From a virus (lineage: Duplodnaviria; Heunggongvirae; Uroviricota; Caudoviricetes): 64,000 bases of DNA. The position numbers were made by a program, and so were the translations under genes. The stretch lies in IMG/VR virus record IMGVR_UViG_2563366840_000001, one strand, 5' to 3'. The first letter of the stretch is position 1. Every line of letters starts with the position of its first letter. The notes beneath the pieces are model-generated. The model saw only the letters and a program-made list of their open reading frames with translations. It was not told where the DNA came from and made no database searches. Below are positions 2,814 through 17,619 of this stretch, one piece after another.

Positions 2814-3023
2814 ATGGCTTTCATTCCACCAACCATCGACGACGTTAGACATTGCTCTAACGCTTTATCTGTAGACCCCGCCGAAACCGACGCTGCCCGC
2901 GCCATTGCTGAACACTACTCAAAGATATCCAATCAGGAGTACCGCATCACCCAAGACGACCTGGATGATCTCACTGACACAATCGAATATCTCATGGCCA
3001 CTAACCAGCCAGACTCACAATAA
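2814..3023 (+). CDS. coi: Coi, C1 inactivator (69 aa)
   Basis: Translation MAFIPPTIDDVRHCSNALSVDPAETDAARAIAEHYSKISNQEYRITQDDL...; immediately upstream of c1. Confidence 0.85.
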   Translation: MAFIPPTIDDVRHCSNALSVDPAETDAARAIAEHYSKISNQEYRITQDDLDDLTDTIEYLMATNQPDSQ

Positions 3024-3133
3024 ATGCACTAATAAATCTATTATTTTCGTTGGATCCTTCTATAATGGTGGCCAACAACTCCCAGTGTAATCCGCTGTGA
3101 GTTGTTGGCCATGTCAATTCTGGAGGAGGATCA

Positions 3134-3985
3134 ATGATAAATTATGTCTACGGCGAACAACTGTACCAGGAGTTCGTCAGCTTCAGGGATCTCTTTCTAA
3201 AAAAAGCTGTTGCACGCGCCCAACACGTTGATGCCGCCAGCAACGGTCGTCCTGTACGCCCGGTTGTCGTTCTACCGTTCAAAGAAACTGACAGCATTCA
3301 GGCTGAAATTGATAAATGGACTTTAATGGCGCGGGAACTGGAACAGTACCCAGACCTCAATATCCCAAAGACTATTTTATATCCAGTGCCTAACATCCTT
3401 CGCGGTGTGCGTAAGGTTACAACTTATCAGACAGAGGCTGTGAACAGCGTCAACATGACCGCTGGCCGCATTATTCATCTGATTGATAAGGACATTCGCA
3501 TCCAAAAAAGCGCGGGGATCAATGAGCACAGTGCGAAATACATAGAGAACCTGGAAGCAACAAAAGAGCTAATGAAGCAGTACCCGGAGGATGAAAAATT
3601 CCGTATGCGCGTACACGGCTTTAGCGAAACAATGCTGCGCGTCCATTACATTTCTAGTAGCCCTAACTACAATGATGGTAAATCAGTTAGTTACCATGTG
3701 CCGCTATGTGGTGTGTTTATCTGCGATGAAACTCTCCGTGATGGAATTATCATCAACGGTGAATTCGAGAAAGCAAAATTTAGCCTTTATGACTCCATAG
3801 AACCGATCATCTGCGACCGCTGGCCGCAAGCAAAAATATATCGCCTGGCAGATATTGAAAATGTAAAAAAACAAATTGCCATCACTCGCGAAGAGAAAAA
3901 GGTTAAGTCAGCCGCATCAGTTACGCGCAGTCGTAAAACCAAGAAGGGGCAGCCAGTAAACGACAACCCCGAAAGCGCGCAATAA
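3134..3985 (+). CDS. c1: C1 master repressor of lysogeny (283 aa)
   Basis: Translation MINYVYGEQLYQEFVSFRDLFLKKAVARAQHVDAAS... recognised as P1 C1. Confidence 0.95.
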   Translation: MINYVYGEQLYQEFVSFRDLFLKKAVARAQHVDAASNGRPVRPVVVLPFKETDSIQAEIDKWTLMARELEQYPDLNIPKTILYPVPNILRGVRKVTTYQTEAVNSVNMTAGRIIHLIDKDIRIQKSAGINEHSAKYIENLEATKELMKQYPEDEKFRMRVHGFSETMLRVHYISSSPNYNDGKSVSYHVPLCGVFICDETLRDGIIINGEFEKAKFSLYDSIEPIICDRWPQAKIYRLADIENVKKQIAITREEKKVKSAASVTRSRKTKKGQPVNDNPESAQ

Positions 3986-10082: not shown

Positions 10083-10283
10083 TTATCTGCTGCCCGGCAT
10101 TCTCTGTTTAAGCACAGCCATTTCCTGACGGCATAACACAGCAATAGCGGTCCTGGCACCAATTTGCCTACCAACCAGGTATTGCTTTACCTCGCGGCGA
10201 CTCACGCCATCAAGAAGCATCTTTAACGCTTCACGGGACAACTTGTTGTATTTACGTGCCATTAATCTACTCCGCAGAACCAT
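10083..10283 (-). CDS. pdcA: PdcA-like small basic protein (66 aa)
   Basis: Assigned by position only; overlaps doc 3' end by 17 nt. Confidence 0.35.
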
Positions 10284-10647
10284 ACAATCTACGTAACGTG
10301 TCGGCGACAGAAGATACAGATATCTCGCCAGTCGCAGCGCCTACGGTAAGGTCTGCCAGTTCAGGTGAATCAAATACCTGCACCCCGTTACGGCGTAGAA
10401 ATAGCAGCGCACTGTTTAGCGCGGTACGCTTATTGGCATCATTGAATATATGCCCTCTCGCTGTAGCCACCAGGTAGGTGGCGGAGACTTCGAAAAGGTC
10501 GGTGATCTCTTCGTAGGCAACTCTGGCCTGAACTCTCCCGATAATGGCCTCTGCCCTACCCGGATCTGACATTCCCGGCAGGCCGCCGTAGCGGCTTATA
10601 TTCGCATCATGAAGCGCAATAAGTTCTTCCGGTGATATATGCCTCAT
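10267..10647 (-). CDS. doc: Doc toxin (Fic-fold kinase, death on curing), 126 aa
   Basis: Translation [39 protein letters not shown]... recognised as P1 Doc. Confidence 0.9.
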
Positions 10648-10868
10648 TATCGGTTAACCAGTTCCTTGTTGGTGGAGTCCAGAGTGTCAAACAGGGATGC
10701 AAATTCAGCATCCAGCGCCGCTTTTTTGTAGGCTTCGAAAGTAGCCTTGCTGACAATTACTGCTGGCTCACGGCCTCTGCGGGTGATTTCAACCTCTTCC
10801 CCGGCTTCAACATTGTTGAGCACTTCAGAAAGGTTGCCGCGCGCGGTACGGAAGTTAATGGATTGCAT
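10647..10868 (-). CDS. phd: Phd antitoxin (73 aa)
   Basis: [41 protein letters not shown]...; true start is the second Met of ORF 10647..10874; stop overlaps doc start. Confidence 0.9.
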
Positions 10869-10940
10869 AAACACCTCGTGTACTCGTTATGTGTACACAA
10901 TTATAAACTTCACAGGCATAAAGCACCAGCACTTTGCAGC

Positions 10941-11330
10941 TTAAATCACCGGACAATCATCAAACTCCCCACTTCGGGCATCATTGATGACATGAGTGAT
11001 CACACCAAAAACAGCATTACTGCCCGTGCATCCATCGTCATCTACTGGTAACGCCTCTTTCTTCCCGGTGCTTAAATCCTCCAGGTGCTGGCGCGGATAC
11101 TTCCTGTATCTCTTTATGCGATATTCACCCTCCATAGCGCACACAAGCAGAGAACCATCAACCGGAGTAAGCGAGGAATCAACCACCAGCAAAGCACCCT
11201 GCAATATTCCCTCACGGTGATGGCTATCAGCTGCCCGCATGAAGTAGGTTGCTGATGGATGCCTGATTAGTTGCTGATCAAGAGAAATTCGGCTTTCAAC
11301 ATAATCCGCCGCAGGAGAAGGGAAGCCCAT
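10941..11330 (-). CDS. humD: HumD, UmuD-like SOS mutagenesis protein (129 aa)
   Basis: UmuD'-like sequence; LexA box 20 bp upstream. Confidence 0.85.
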   Translation of the reverse strand: MGFPSPAADYVESRISLDQQLIRHPSATYFMRAADSHHREGILQGALLVVDSSLTPVDGSLLVCAMEGEYRIKRYRKYPRQHLEDLSTGKKEALPVDDDGCTGSNAVFGVITHVINDARSGEFDDCPVI

Positions 11331-11349: not shown

Positions 11350-11369
11350 TACTGTTCATTTATACAGTA
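11350..11369. promoter_or_regulatory. LexA (SOS) box TACTGTTCATTTATACAGTA
   Basis: CTGT-N8-ACAG palindrome read directly, between humD and the divergent plus-strand ORFs. Confidence 0.7.
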
Positions 11370-11681
11370 TACATTAAAGAGACACCTTTGGTGCAAACGC
11401 GTTACGTACATCAACCACCGCTGATGATTTTGTGCGCTTTGCTACTATTCATCACCAACGGATCAGCGTAACCTCGTTGCCAATCAGTTAATAAGGAATT
11501 AGCTATGCCTAATCGCATTCCTCTCGATCCTGTATTGCCCAAAAATTTTGACTGCACTCCTAACGAGAAACGCTTTAAAGCTCAGCTGGACGCCTAGTGG
11601 GACCATCCATATGGGGTTACACAACCTGACGGGAAAATTGTAGTTTATTGTCTGAATGGTGGGGCGTGGGACCGTCCATCC

Positions 11682-12089
11682 GTGCTTTGTTTGGCAGATA
11701 ACTATGATGAAGCCTGTGAACTTGCCGAAAGACAGCAGGCAAGCTGGGTAAAAACACGGTCTGAACCGACATTCATGTTTTCAAAAGAACCGCCATTTAT
11801 ACTGGCGAGGATGTCGCAGCGACCGGATCATCAACAAGAAATTGTTGCTGAATTTTCCTCAAGGGATGAGATGAATCTCTTCTCATTAAAGCAGGAAGAA
11901 AGGGATCGCGTCGAAGTGTCTCCAACTCTCGACCACAACCGGATGAACCTGGCCCAGCTCGCCTGGTACAGCAAAGAATTAGAGATGTCTATTGCCCGGC
12001 TTGAAAACGAAAAAGCCGCTATCCAAGTCCAGCACGAAGTAGTTCTGAACCGGATTAGAGAAATGCAAAACGATAACAGGGGATTTTGA
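11682..12089 (+). CDS. Hypothetical protein (135 aa; start may be further downstream)
   Basis: ORF track; divergent from humD; stop overlaps start of next ORF (TGAATGG). Confidence 0.4.
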   Translation: MLCLADNYDEACELAERQQASWVKTRSEPTFMFSKEPPFILARMSQRPDHQQEIVAEFSSRDEMNLFSLKQEERDRVEVSPTLDHNRMNLAQLAWYSKELEMSIARLENEKAAIQVQHEVVLNRIREMQNDNRGF

Positions 12090-12446
12090 ATGGCTAAAAT
12101 CGAGTACCATCGCGATCGCAGTAATTACCTGGAAATATACGATCATGAATCTCTTAACGATATCAACGATGCGTTATATGAATACTGTGAAAAAACGAGC
12201 ATCACAGATGCACCTGATGCATTTGTCGAGCTGCCGGTATATCTCCGCGACATCTATGCAATACGAACACCGCCCGTATCGGTGATTCACATTGGCTATG
12301 TCCGCCTGTCCATCGAAGAAGATGAAGATCGTTATATCGTGCGCCACTATACATTGGACAGAAAAGAACTTCCTAATGAATGGAACATGAGTAATTTCTA
12401 CAACGGTGAATATGGCTTAAAATCCGCTAATAATTTACGGTCATAA
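12090..12446 (+). CDS. Hypothetical protein (118 aa)
   Basis: ORF track; coupled to upstream ORF. Confidence 0.45.
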   Translation: MAKIEYHRDRSNYLEIYDHESLNDINDALYEYCEKTSITDAPDAFVELPVYLRDIYAIRTPPVSVIHIGYVRLSIEEDEDRYIVRHYTLDRKELPNEWNMSNFYNGEYGLKSANNLRS

Positions 12447-13308
12447 TCTATACAGGCATGTATAACAACAACGAGCCTATTAGCTGTCAACAACGTTATT
12501 TCCTCAAATAAGAAAAAGCAGAAAACAAATTGTTTAAGGTCACAAATTGTGGCCTTGATGGAGGAGGGAGGCTTATTGGCTATGGCTAAAAATCAAATTA
12601 GACACTTCATGTTGCTGTAGCTCATCAAGATCCGAGGCCACAAAACCTTTTCCGAAAAACTTCACAAGTAACTCACTAGCCGCATCATTGTCACCTATTA
12701 CACGAAAGTCATACGGCAACGTCGCAAGTTGACGATGTAATCCTGCTGAGAAAGTCGAATCTAACAGCGCCCAGAATTCCCACCGCAGGATAATACTCGC
12801 CTCTTAATACTGTATATATGTTGTTACGATATGTTTTTCTGTCTCTAAAAAAAGATGTTAATAGAATGCTAACCATTGAAGGGGATAAAAATATACAATT
12901 CCAACAAACGTTATTTTTAACAATTTTTTTCTTTGCGTTGACTTTCCCGGACACCTTGTCTGACCGAAGGTGCGCGAAAGCCACTTTTTCCTTCCTGAGT
13001 TATCCACAAAGTTATGCACTTGCAAGAGGGCCATTTTCTACATATTGTGGTGGCTAACAGATGAAATGAATGTAGATTAATTGAAGATAAGGAGAAAATT
13101 TGAGATGCAATCATGACGTTAATAGATAGGGTCTGCATTACAGACCCCACCCGCATCAAGGAATTAGCCGTTCCCTGATGTTTTTCCGAAAACATGTGCC
13201 GTAAGCTCACGTTAACGACTTTCATTCACCGAATCCAACTATATAGGGGTTGGGTTTCTACGTCAACGTGAGCAAGTGCACCTTTACATTTGACAAGGAA
13301 CCACCTGA

Positions 13309-13446
13309 ATGAACGCTTTTTTTCAGTTCCTGAGTGCATTTTTAGATGCGCCTATTATTAGCCAGATTCTGGCTATTATCCTCATCATCGTTTTGATTTT
13401 GCTTTTAAGGTCAGTAAAAAATGGAATTATGCACTGGCTTACTTAA
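13309..13446 (+). CDS. Small hydrophobic protein (45 aa), candidate membrane peptide
   Basis: MNAFFQFLSAFLDAPIISQILAIILIIVLILLLRSVKNGIMHWLT; AAGGA 9 nt upstream of ATG; too short for the ORF track. Confidence 0.3.
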   Translation: MNAFFQFLSAFLDAPIISQILAIILIIVLILLLRSVKNGIMHWLT

Positions 13447-13521
13447 TGTTTCAGTGAAACATTAAAATCTCCTTGATGTGGAAACAATCATTTTCTGTAT
13501 GTGCTGGTGGGCACCTGTAGT

Positions 13522-13884
13522 TCAGCTTTCGTTGGCATTTAACTTCGTCTTTGCTTTCTCCACCAGCAACTTCCAGATGCCTATTTCATTAGCAGCCGCC
13601 TTGATGGCGGCATAAAAAGCATCTTGCTGATCGTAACGCTGGATCTGTTTTTTCAGTTTTGCCTCCACCAATTTAATTTCATTACGTGCTTTCTGAAGCC
13701 GCATCACCGCCCGGTTACGTCTGTTCTTGTATAGCGTGTTAATCTCTGACAATTGCTTTAATTTACCAGCCTGACTGCGGATTATCGCCTCCCTGGCTTC
13801 TGCCGTGCGTCTCATCTTATCTCTTAAGAGTTCACCGTTTTCGATAATTCTTTCAAGGTGTTTGATGTGATCTGCAACTCTCAT
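13522..13884 (-). CDS. Hypothetical coiled-coil protein (120 aa)
   Basis: ORF track; last gene of a minus-strand gene string. Confidence 0.5.
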   Translation of the reverse strand: MRVADHIKHLERIIENGELLRDKMRRTAEAREAIIRSQAGKLKQLSEINTLYKNRRNRAVMRLQKARNEIKLVEAKLKKQIQRYDQQDAFYAAIKAAANEIGIWKLLVEKAKTKLNANES

Positions 13885-17602: not shown

Positions 17603-17619
17603 ATATTTATTAGAGCAAT
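17603..17619. promoter_or_regulatory. C1 operator at the 3' end of the HAD-like gene
   Basis: ATATTTATTAGAGCAAT, 16 of 17 consensus positions. Confidence 0.6.

Follow-up and report, generated by a model that had tools for sequence, protein, structure and literature searches.

A conserved membrane-peptide module with a structured leader and an nrdA-like promoter copy in P1-like phage-plasmids, a candidate type I toxin-antitoxin-like locus

The hok/sok, pnd, and srnB loci each combine a membrane peptide of a single helix with a folded mRNA, a leader open reading frame (ORF), a possible pairing between the 5' and 3' parts of the message, and an antisense promoter within the leader. In tisB/istR-1 and dinQ/agrB, membrane peptides are placed under a host regulator of DNA status, and a long 5' untranslated region (UTR) is the target of the antitoxin. 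It is also well known that many small one-helix proteins of enterobacteria are regulators and not toxins. The general features of type I toxins have been described, with Rdl being encoded opposite the 5' part of the ldr transcript and with the Ldr/Fst toxins being short proteins with a conserved Trp and a charged segment behind a transmembrane (TM) helix (PMC2887945). Here we describe a locus of possibly comparable layout, located at positions 12447-13521 of a 64,000-nucleotide (nt) stretch of viral DNA (Caudoviricetes; IMG/VR record IMGVR_UViG_2563366840_000001), which is referred to below as the window and which derives from a P1-like phage-plasmid. Its centerpiece is an ORF of 45 codons on the plus strand, here named ORF45.

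Our interpretation, which is tentative and falls somewhat short of being probable, is that the right part of this AT-rich island specifies a small membrane peptide controlled by antisense RNA or by attenuation, much as in type I toxin-antitoxin loci. The most secure of the new points are that the island is composite, that it contains a copy of the host nrdA regulatory region whose extent and quality can be defined, that the conserved ORF is the one on the plus strand and not those annotated on the minus strand, and that the leader with its antisense promoter-like site is the most constrained part of the locus.

ORF45 and its conservation among allelic types

ORF45 (MNAFFQFLSAFLDAPIISQILAIILIIVLILLLRSVKNGIMHWLT) occupies positions 13309-13446 of the plus strand and encodes 45 amino acids (aa), with a Shine-Dalgarno (SD) sequence, AAGGA, at 13295-13299, 9 nt before the ATG. 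A hydrophobic ORF of this length with a ribosome binding site had been noticed in an earlier sequence-only reading of the window, and it was recovered here with exactly the sequence quoted there. One TM helix is predicted at approximately residues 15-33, with a mean Kyte-Doolittle value of 3.1 (2.6 in the divergent allelic type described below), and the C-terminal tail is basic and contains a Trp residue (RSVKNGIMHWLT or KSVINRGVRWLI), with Trp43 being invariant. In its size, its TM helix, and its polar tail, ORF45 is like the type I toxins, which are shorter than 60 aa (PMC2887945). The ORF is annotated only as a hypothetical protein (J46_0085 in phage SJ46), and neither a P1 transcriptome nor a report on ORF45 was found in the literature.

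ORF45 is part of a module spanning ~12910-13515, which was found only in P1-like elements, where it occurs as three allelic types: one shared by the window and phages P7 and SJ46, one found in P1 (~96% identity), and a divergent type (~78%). Searches of plasmids, phages, IMG/VR (54 loci), metagenomes (15 loci), and Escherichia coli genomes returned the same three types, and this narrow diversity sets an upper limit on how strong any of our evolutionary arguments can be. By blastn, the homology between types extends over ~12948-13512 and ends just before the stop codon of pmgV. The flanks vary, with hot/lxr or upf93.6 on the left and pmgV, hsdM (of a type I restriction-modification system), or other genes on the right. 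Of 5426 complete E. coli genomes, 216 contain the module, which is plasmid borne at 222 of its 223 places; a search of these genomes turned up no paralogue of the leader or of ORF45 on a chromosome, and pattern and tblastn scans of 185,579 species-representative genomes returned 0 relatives. Plasmid L008 matches the window at 94% identity over the 2 kb that flank the module but at only 77% within the module itself, which is therefore an old allele that was kept through recombination.

ORF45 is the sole ORF on either strand that is intact in all three allelic types, with the same length, start, and stop, except that a single phage record lacks 1 nt in a run of seven T residues. Between the deep types, the ORF differs at 33 positions (nucleotide identity, 76%) without an insertion or deletion, and these differences fall 12, 8, and 13 times on the first, second, and third codon positions, respectively. 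The ratio of nonsynonymous to synonymous substitution rates (dN/dS) is 0.41-0.45, and all changes within the helix replace one hydrophobic residue with another. When random mutations of equal size were simulated, the frame was kept and the observed BLOSUM score was reached in 1.6% of the trials (P of ~0.016). Taken together, this suggests that ORF45 is probably a real, translated membrane peptide.

No relative of ORF45 outside P1-like elements was found in the searches made. Nothing significant was obtained from Pfam, NCBIfam, PADLOC, or PHROGs (best match, phrog_1184, with an E value of 0.058), and in Pfam at an E value of ≤1, the sole match was the irrelevant family ASFV_J13L (E value of 0.25). 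An exhaustive phmmer search of 1.84 billion representative proteins and a word-indexed search of 5.8 billion proteins returned only shortened or frameshifted copies of ORF45 itself. Several natural disruptions of ORF45 were seen, namely, in phage vB_EcoM-813R1 (locus L006), at 2501-2707 of locus L082 (GCA_902846855), and in four database proteins (P0001-P0004). The kinds of disruption are the 1-nt deletion in the T7 run, a recombination breakpoint after approximately residue 31 with fusion to an unrelated sequence, and several C-terminal frameshifts.

The reference records give a different account of this locus. The upfM-upfN-upfO interval of P1 (M95666; NC_005856, 85.7 to 86.5 kb) and the upf91.x genes of P7 correspond to the module of the window, and the genes annotated there, upfM, upfN, and upfO in P1 (AF234172/NC_005856) and upf91.3, 91.4, 91.6, and 91.7 in P7 (AF503408), are all on the minus strand. 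The DnaA box, the nrdA-like promoter, and a minus-strand promoter prediction named PupfN, all of which are discussed below, are already present in the P1 records; what differs is that genes were placed on the opposite strand, that these ORFs are not conserved, and that ORF45 is left unannotated in P1 and P7. In favor of upfM, upfN, upfO, and upf91.x as the real genes of the region are their presence in reference records and the position of upfN behind the promoter-like site at 13266-13238. However, in the divergent type, upfM is cut short by a stop after 12 codons and upfN has lost its frame through stops, insertions, and deletions, and the upfN-equivalent ORF is 65 aa long in P1 but 102 aa long in the window; furthermore, no family hits were obtained for the minus-strand ORFs, and the RefSeq annotation pipeline PGAP mostly calls nothing at this place. 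We have therefore rejected upfM and upfN as genes and find it barely credible that the minus-strand ORFs are the genes of this region. It had been proposed in the sequence-only reading that an alignment of the region to noncoding P1 sequence would speak against a functional small ORF. This comparison does not discriminate, because P1 has only the right half of the island, and the ORFs that its annotation places there, on the opposite strand, fail the comparison.

The nrdA-like promoter copy, the leader, and the antisense promoter-like site

On the plus strand upstream of ORF45, at 12910-13040, the regulatory region of the host nrdA gene is present as a nearly exact copy that includes DnaA boxes; the sequence-only reading had not noted it. 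The copy spans 12910-13050 and is 96.3% identical to the E. coli sequence over 109 nt (12930-13038), and a match to these 109 nt was found in 5426 of 5426 E. coli genomes, with the chromosomal site being immediately upstream of nrdA. Within the copy are a 45-bp inverted repeat (~12944-12985), two DnaA boxes, TTATCCACA at 13000-13008 and TTATGCACT at 13012-13020, and a −35 element, TTGCAA, at 13020-13025, which is followed after a 17-nt spacer by a −10 element, TATTGT, at 13043-13048, at the end of the homology. The inverted repeat, both DnaA 9-mers, and the −35 element of the E. coli nrdAB promoter are thus all inside the 96.3% copy. In contrast to the chromosomal promoter, the homology stops at the −10 element, where a 2-bp deletion yields TATTGT instead of TATCTT, and the nrdA leader and the nrdA gene are replaced by the phage leader and ORF45, so that the downstream sequence is unrelated. 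In E. coli, nrdAB is regulated by DnaA-ATP and the inverted repeat (PMC2500167). The phage copy is the likely promoter of an ORF45 transcript and, judged from its elements, may be active and fire near ~13055. A promoter belonging to ORF45 itself was looked for between 13190 and 13300, and none was seen by eye or by scan. The nrdA leader presumably contains NrdR boxes, and by eye, the copy diverges where we take the first box to lie. The motif CTATATA at 13241 was also considered by eye as an NrdR box but was rejected, as it is better explained as the −10 element of the antisense site.

GenBank record M95666 of P1 already labels this site as an nrdA-like promoter with a dnaA box. Compared with the copy annotated in P1 (56 bp, 94%), the copy in the window extends further and is more similar to E. 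coli (109 nt, 96%), and the P1 type and the third allelic type hold older, more diverged versions. Upstream of the DnaA boxes, the similarity to the E. coli chromosome is far higher for the window copy (96%) than for the P1-type copy, which suggests that the former recombined with, or was converted by, the host chromosome or a D6-like element at a later date.

D6-like phage-plasmids show the same arrangement with different cargo; in plasmid pPSUO78_2 (CP012114; locus L010), humD and a LexA box are accompanied, at 2905-3562, by an nrdA-like promoter that faces outward. There, the ~90-nt region downstream ends in a strong bidirectional terminator (AAAAAGCCCAG...CTGGGCTTTTT, 3148-3178), and a further ORF of 27 to 31 aa (3467/3480-3562) has its own terminator. 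Such elements may use the nrdA promoter copy as a common platform from which small RNAs or peptides are expressed.

Nine sites resembling the operator of the P1 C1 repressor (ATTGCTCTAATAAATTT, ≤3 mismatches; 0.2 expected) were detected in the window, at 2476-2575, 3023, 5688, 8994, 17603, 19695-19760, and 24681, with the site at 17603 being the nearest on the pmgV side. None of them lies within 12447-13521, so that the module has no operator at its promoter of the kind that marks the C1-controlled operons of P1, and expression in the lysogen is therefore possible.

Between the promoter copy and ORF45 lies a conserved leader of ~250 nt (13055-13308, plus strand), which is predicted to be highly structured. 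It begins with a perfect SD sequence, AAGGAG (13089-13094), that is invariant across the types, followed by a 3-codon mini-ORF (ATG CAA TCA TGA, 13105-13116) whose stop overlaps, in the sequence ATGA, the start of a leader ORF of 21 codons (13113-13178). The SD sequence and both ATGs are invariant, and the bases between the ATGs vary by type (CAATC, CATTT, and TAATC). Three hairpins (HP) are predicted, namely, HP1 at 13129-13147 (−11.8 kcal/mol); the terminator-like HP2 at 13153-13181 (−11.5 kcal/mol), which is followed by a T run to 13185 and carries the stop codon of the leader ORF in its 3' arm; and the bipartite HP3, in which 13206-13217 pairs with 13261-13272 around an inner hairpin at 13231-13257. 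HP1 and HP2 account for the hairpins that had been noticed before at about 13110-13180.

The leader is more conserved than the peptide. Compared with the divergent type, the identity is 88% over 13086-13192 and 96% over 13193-13272, versus 76% over ORF45 and 58 to 68% over the adjacent spacers; the comparison of P1 with the divergent type gives the same profile, with the leader being at least as conserved as the hot coding sequence. The plus strand from 13056 to 13470 folds with a z score of −3.9 relative to shuffled sequences, with values for the leader reaching −4.4. In the consensus fold of the three types, 98.6% of the cells are paired, and two compensatory pairs and 13 one-sided compatible changes were counted, with one compensatory change, U-A to C-G, being in HP1 and the other in the 3' hairpin. 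The structure conservation index (SCI) over ORF45 and the 3' part is 0.77 for the plus strand and 0.47 for the minus strand, and for the leader, the two strands are equal; overall, the plus-strand values are 0.77 to 0.81. A structured mRNA with a long 5' UTR, as seen in type I systems, is thus present, and this would be consistent with a control of translation.

HP2 consists of an 11-bp stem with one mismatch, followed by UUUUUCC in the window, and it was not called by the consensus scanner. As the SD sequence and the ATGs are invariant and the leader ORF ends in the 3' arm of HP2 just before the U run, HP2 could act as a translation-sensitive attenuator. We regard this step as uncertain, because HP2 is weaker in the divergent type and its U tract is interrupted in P1. 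A separate observation concerns the loop of HP2 (13165-13169), which differs by type, UUAGCCG versus UUCACAG. By eye, both versions keep a 5' YUNR, a statistically weak match to a feature of the recognition loops of antisense RNAs.

Within the leader, the minus strand contains a sigma-70-like promoter sequence, TTGACG-17-TATAGT (13266-13238; 10 of 12 consensus positions), from which a transcript would start at ~13231. It is the sole strong promoter-like site in the scan and is the same site that the P1 annotators predicted as PupfN; overall, promoter- and terminator-like sites were no commoner in the scan than in shuffled sequence. Both hexamers are invariant in 25 of 25 distinct sequences of the three types. 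The substitutions that do occur in the 80-nt core of the leader fall within the promoter spacer, which is at the same time the apical loop of HP3, within an unpaired stretch, or are C-G to U-G changes that preserve the pairing. Such a pattern would be expected from a double constraint, in which one strand has to maintain a promoter and the other an RNA structure. The predicted transcript from ~13231 is complementary to the 5' arm of HP3, to HP2 and HP1, and to the starts of the leader ORFs, and the minus-strand RNA predicted for 13086-13231 folds with a z score of −3.7 and includes a hairpin of −20.4 kcal/mol. As another source of antisense RNA, over ORF45, we considered the P1upfM and P2upfM promoters of P1; these were rejected since, by eye, they are not conserved in the divergent type.

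The position of this promoter-like site also allows a reading in which the conserved core serves mainly to regulate neighboring genes at the level of DNA or transcription and ORF45 is incidental. PupfN would then be a lysogenic promoter with a long 5' UTR for hot, which encodes a homologue of the theta subunit of DNA polymerase III, and it would face the DnaA-controlled nrdA-like promoter, with interference between the convergent promoters. In line with this, hot is directly downstream on the minus strand in P1 and in the divergent type, hot and the module have diverged together as one block (81%, with hot itself being ~90% identical), the two promoter-like sites face each other ~190 bp apart, and humD, lxr, hot, and the LexA box make this a neighborhood of replication and repair functions. 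Yet the lineage of the window, P7, and SJ46 has lost hot and retains the module intact, including ORF45, at 96 to 100% identity to P1 types. Moreover, the frame, length, SD sequence, and hydrophobicity of ORF45 were kept across 24% nucleotide divergence, the RNA structure of the ORF and 3' part is conserved on the plus strand only (SCI values as given above), and hot of P1 already has its own late promoter, LPhot. We therefore regard the regulation of neighboring genes as an improbable main function of the core.

The 3' end of the ORF45 region is marked by a perfect palindrome of 11+1+11 nt at 13443-13465. Such a palindrome had been described in the sequence-only reading as following the ORF45 stop; it is real and perfect, but it is larger than had been stated and starts within the TAA stop codon instead of following it. 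As an RNA on the plus strand, it folds with −7.8 kcal/mol (z score of −4.7), although it is not a canonical terminator, because it has no U tract. In the divergent type, 3 of the 11 arm positions lose the symmetry of the DNA, and the hairpin survives on the plus-strand RNA only, through one compensatory change of U-A to C-G and one change of G-C to G-U. On comparative grounds, the palindrome is thus more readily understood as a stem-loop at the 3' end of the ORF45 mRNA than as an operator acting in the DNA; the latter was rejected because the divergent type keeps the hairpin only with the help of G·U pairs and because no C1 operator is present. A 1-nt deletion within the palindrome was found in 19 of ~64 loci, in a subclade of the P1 type (for instance, L057 and 11 identical loci), and its perfection is therefore not under strict selection. 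The 3' tail of the module (13466-13515, plus strand) contains UCUCCUUG (13468-13475), which is complementary to UAAGGAGA in the leader (13088-13095) and to the SD region of ORF45 (CAAGGA, 13294-13299). This pairing is helix 1 of the consensus fold, with 7 pairs, one of which changes from G-C to G-U. The case for its functional relevance is weak, as the pairing is short and partly conserved, but it is reminiscent of the fold-back elements of toxin mRNAs.

Composition of the AT-rich island

Positions 12300-13700 of the window are 99.9% identical to phages P7 and SJ46, and P1 shares only 12970-13700, at 96.6% identity; the window is therefore assigned to a P1-like phage-plasmid of the P7/SJ46 type. 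The genes doc, phd, and humD are located at 10267-11330. The G+C content of 12447-13521 is 0.393, compared with a mean of 0.520 (standard deviation, 0.054) for intervals of the same size in the window, and only 0.2% of these intervals, all overlapping this locus, are equally low, so that it contains the lowest-G+C kilobase. The flanking genes, upf93.6 (12090-12446, plus strand) on the left and pmgV (13522-13884, minus strand, with its stop at 13522) on the right, end at 12446 and 13522, which bears out the earlier description of an AT-rich, gene-poor island. A scan for tRNA and transfer-messenger RNA genes found none. Where P1 has lxr and hot, this lineage has upf94.2, upf93.6, and the debris described below; compared with P1, it is without hot, lxr, and upfO and has in addition a Toprim gene fragment and a relic LexA box. 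Both upf94.2 and upf93.6 (plus strand, 11682-12446) match only PHROGs of unknown function and gave no significant Pfam hit and no PADLOC hit.

The comparisons indicate that the island is a composite, in which recombination debris (12447-12909) is joined to the conserved module at ~12910-13515. We are confident of this anatomy as a whole. The debris begins with a spacer 3' of upf93.6 (12447-12572), which from 12492 onward shares homology with the sequence that lies 3' of a Toprim-like gene in other phage-plasmids and which contains a hairpin (AAGGTCACAAATTGTGGCCTT, 12537-12557). CMS-2020a and PhiR41_1 match 12492-12784 at ~90% identity; there, the Toprim-like gene is intact and is followed by the same hairpin, which by its position would be the terminator of this gene. 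In the window, only a 3'-terminal fragment of the Toprim/primase-like gene is left on the minus strand (12573-12800; ~66 to 75 codons, no start codon). Its frame is 88% identical over 66 aa to residues 109-174, the C terminus, of the 174-aa PhiR41_1 protein, of which it keeps only the last ~66 residues, and it matches PHROG families annotated as DNA primase (phrog_17952, E value of 6e-39; phrog_849, positions 258-334 of 435). It is thus a pseudogene remnant, as had been suspected from the absence of a Met codon in this frame. In phage P7 (AF503408, 92007-93063), IS903 is inserted at ~12710 of the window numbering, within the Toprim gene fragment; it is absent from the window.

The remainder of the debris (12790-12909; G+C content, 0.275) is a relic of a humD upstream region, as seen from its alignment to the D6-like plasmid introduced above. 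In that plasmid, an intact LexA box, TACTGTATATGCATACAGTA, abuts humD, whereas the corresponding box of the window (~12805-12825) is destroyed by an 11-bp deletion that takes out the CAG half-site. The box at 12805-12825 is thus a dead LexA box in a second copy of the humD upstream sequence, and the functional humD box is near 11350-11370.

The debris raises the question of whether the whole stretch might be AT-rich junk in a recombination hot spot, with ORF45, the hairpins, and the promoter-like sites all being due to chance. The left half is demonstrably debris, in which P7 tolerates IS903, and the interval from pmgT to humD is among the hypervariable regions of P1-like phage-plasmids in a published survey (PMC9603915). 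In addition, the P1 genes of the region score as nonessential for lytic growth in CRISPR interference and deletion data (PMC10695390), and, as stated above, the promoter- and terminator-like sites are no commoner than in shuffled sequence. The right half, however, was kept in three lineages with different flanks and with uneven conservation (96% in the core versus 58 to 65% in spacers), it folds with a z score of about −4 compared with shuffled sequences, compensatory changes occur in two hairpins, and the integrity of ORF45 is unlikely to be due to chance at the P value given above. We consider it very unlikely that nothing in the stretch is functional.

Possible function and comparison with known systems

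A mechanism can be envisaged in which the captured nrdA regulatory copy starts a transcript near 13055, wiring the transcription of ORF45 to host DnaA and to replication status. The transcript would begin with the ~250-nt leader containing an SD sequence, the mini-ORF, and the 21-codon ORF with its stop in the 3' arm of HP2. Unless translation of the leader ORF melts HP2, most transcripts would end near 13185, and those that read through would cross HP3, reach ORF45, and end at the 3' stem-loop. From the minus-strand promoter at 13266-13238, an antisense RNA would run over HP2, HP1, and the leader ORF start, and it might block leader translation or trigger cleavage and in this way keep the peptide off. 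All of these steps, namely, transcription, termination, translation, antisense action, and toxicity, are inferred. In the sequence-only reading, ORF45 had been compared to type I toxins or small membrane regulators; our data fit this comparison in that ORF45 behaves like a gene for a one-helix peptide and the layout is that of a type I locus, but they give it no place in a known family. That ORF45 is a toxin held in check by an antisense RNA is possible yet doubtful, and it is unlikely, though conceivable, that the module represents a new type I family of P1-like phage-plasmids, with a DnaA-responsive nrdA promoter and with gating by a leader-ORF terminator and a cis-antisense RNA.

The same features would be compatible with ORF45 being a real but nontoxic membrane protein, with a role in lysogenic conversion, exclusion, or regulation; the leader would then be an ordinary 5' UTR or attenuator, there would be no antitoxin RNA, and the minus-strand promoter-like site would be unused or would serve other genes. 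The conservation of the ORF, its SD sequence, and its hydrophobic helix fit such a protein equally well, as do the absence of a toxin family match, the tolerance of natural truncations, the single-copy state of the locus, and the precedent of the many one-helix enterobacterial regulators. Such a reading leaves unexplained, however, why the leader, especially 13193-13272, is more conserved than the protein and why the antisense hexamers are invariant, and an autonomous cassette with changing neighbors is more typical of selfish modules. On balance, we consider a nontoxic protein rather unlikely.

Several points weigh against an antisense- or attenuation-controlled, type I-like module. The whole case was read from sequence, comparison, and predicted folds. 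No known toxin family is matched by ORF45 and no Rfam toxin or antitoxin RNA by the locus; covariance model searches of 4 kb at an E value of ≤1 and of 661 nt at an E value of ≤10 gave only chance-level matches to mir-4012 (E value of 0.97) and BsrG (15 bits, with a gathering threshold of 55). The coding signal of ORF45 is real but modest, since it is based on essentially one deep comparison. Likewise, the covariation amounts to two independent compensatory events among three clades, and the counts are supportive only, since the few sequences in which they were made are also those from which the structure was obtained, and this introduces a bias. The terminator-like HP2 is followed by UUGUU, an interrupted U tract, in P1, and its stem, with UUUUUAUA, is reduced to −7.2 kcal/mol in the divergent type; the predicted antisense transcript has no canonical terminator, and where hot lies downstream, as in P1 and the divergent type, its expression could be all that the minus-strand promoter serves. 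Many type I loci occur in duplicate, but the module is single copy. A few isolates carry a disrupted ORF45 with no obvious consequence, so that at least some hosts can do without the peptide. The region is also dispensable for lytic growth, although a function in the lysogen or plasmid state is outside the scope of that assay (PMC10695390).

P1, a reference phage, also serves as the model of a large group of phage-plasmids that have clinical relevance and carry resistance genes. Should the proposed reading of the module hold, upfM, upfN, and their P7 equivalents would be annotation artefacts on the wrong strand, and the real product of the interval would be an unannotated membrane peptide with an unusually conserved regulatory leader. 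P1-like elements would have copied a cell cycle promoter of the host to time the expression of this peptide, and a toxin wired to DnaA would add replication status as an input beside the type I toxins that are wired to the SOS response. Besides phd/doc, one of the best-studied phages would then possess another addiction or abortive module, this one based on RNA, which could help to maintain the plasmid prophage or take part in abortive responses. With a benign peptide, the locus would be a compact natural case of promoter capture and leader-based control, of specialist interest only.

The layout of the module resembles that of hok/sok in that a small membrane peptide is preceded by a leader that is predicted to fold and that contains an ORF and a candidate antisense promoter, and the module is likewise carried by a plasmid prophage. 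Neither the Hok/Gef profile (PF01848) nor Sok in Rfam was matched, and, unlike in hok/sok, the leader ORF ends 130 nt before ORF45 and does not overlap it, so that the coupling would be via the terminator hairpin and not translational. As in the Ldr toxins of ldr/rdl, the TM helix of ORF45 is followed by a basic tail with an invariant Trp, Trp43. However, ORF45 has 45 aa versus ~35, Trp43 stands after the basic residues and not before them, and the locus is single copy and plasmid borne and not tandemly repeated. No Pfam (E value of ≤1) or NCBIfam hit to Ldr/Fst and no Rdl, RdlD, Fst, or RNAII match in Rfam was obtained. By eye, the D-A-P-I sequence of ORF45 resembles what we take to be an AAPIL motif in Ldr, and this resemblance is a lead, not a demonstrated homology. 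As tisB and dinQ are tied to a host regulator of DNA status, so the module, which lies beside SOS genes (humD and the LexA box), has a candidate promoter with DnaA boxes, but its control element would be the DnaA/nrdA cell cycle element and not LexA, the sole LexA box in the interval being dead, and the candidate antitoxin is cis-antisense and not divergently encoded. No similarity in sequence or by covariance model was found to TisB, Ibs, ShoB, DinQ, ZorO, or their small RNAs.

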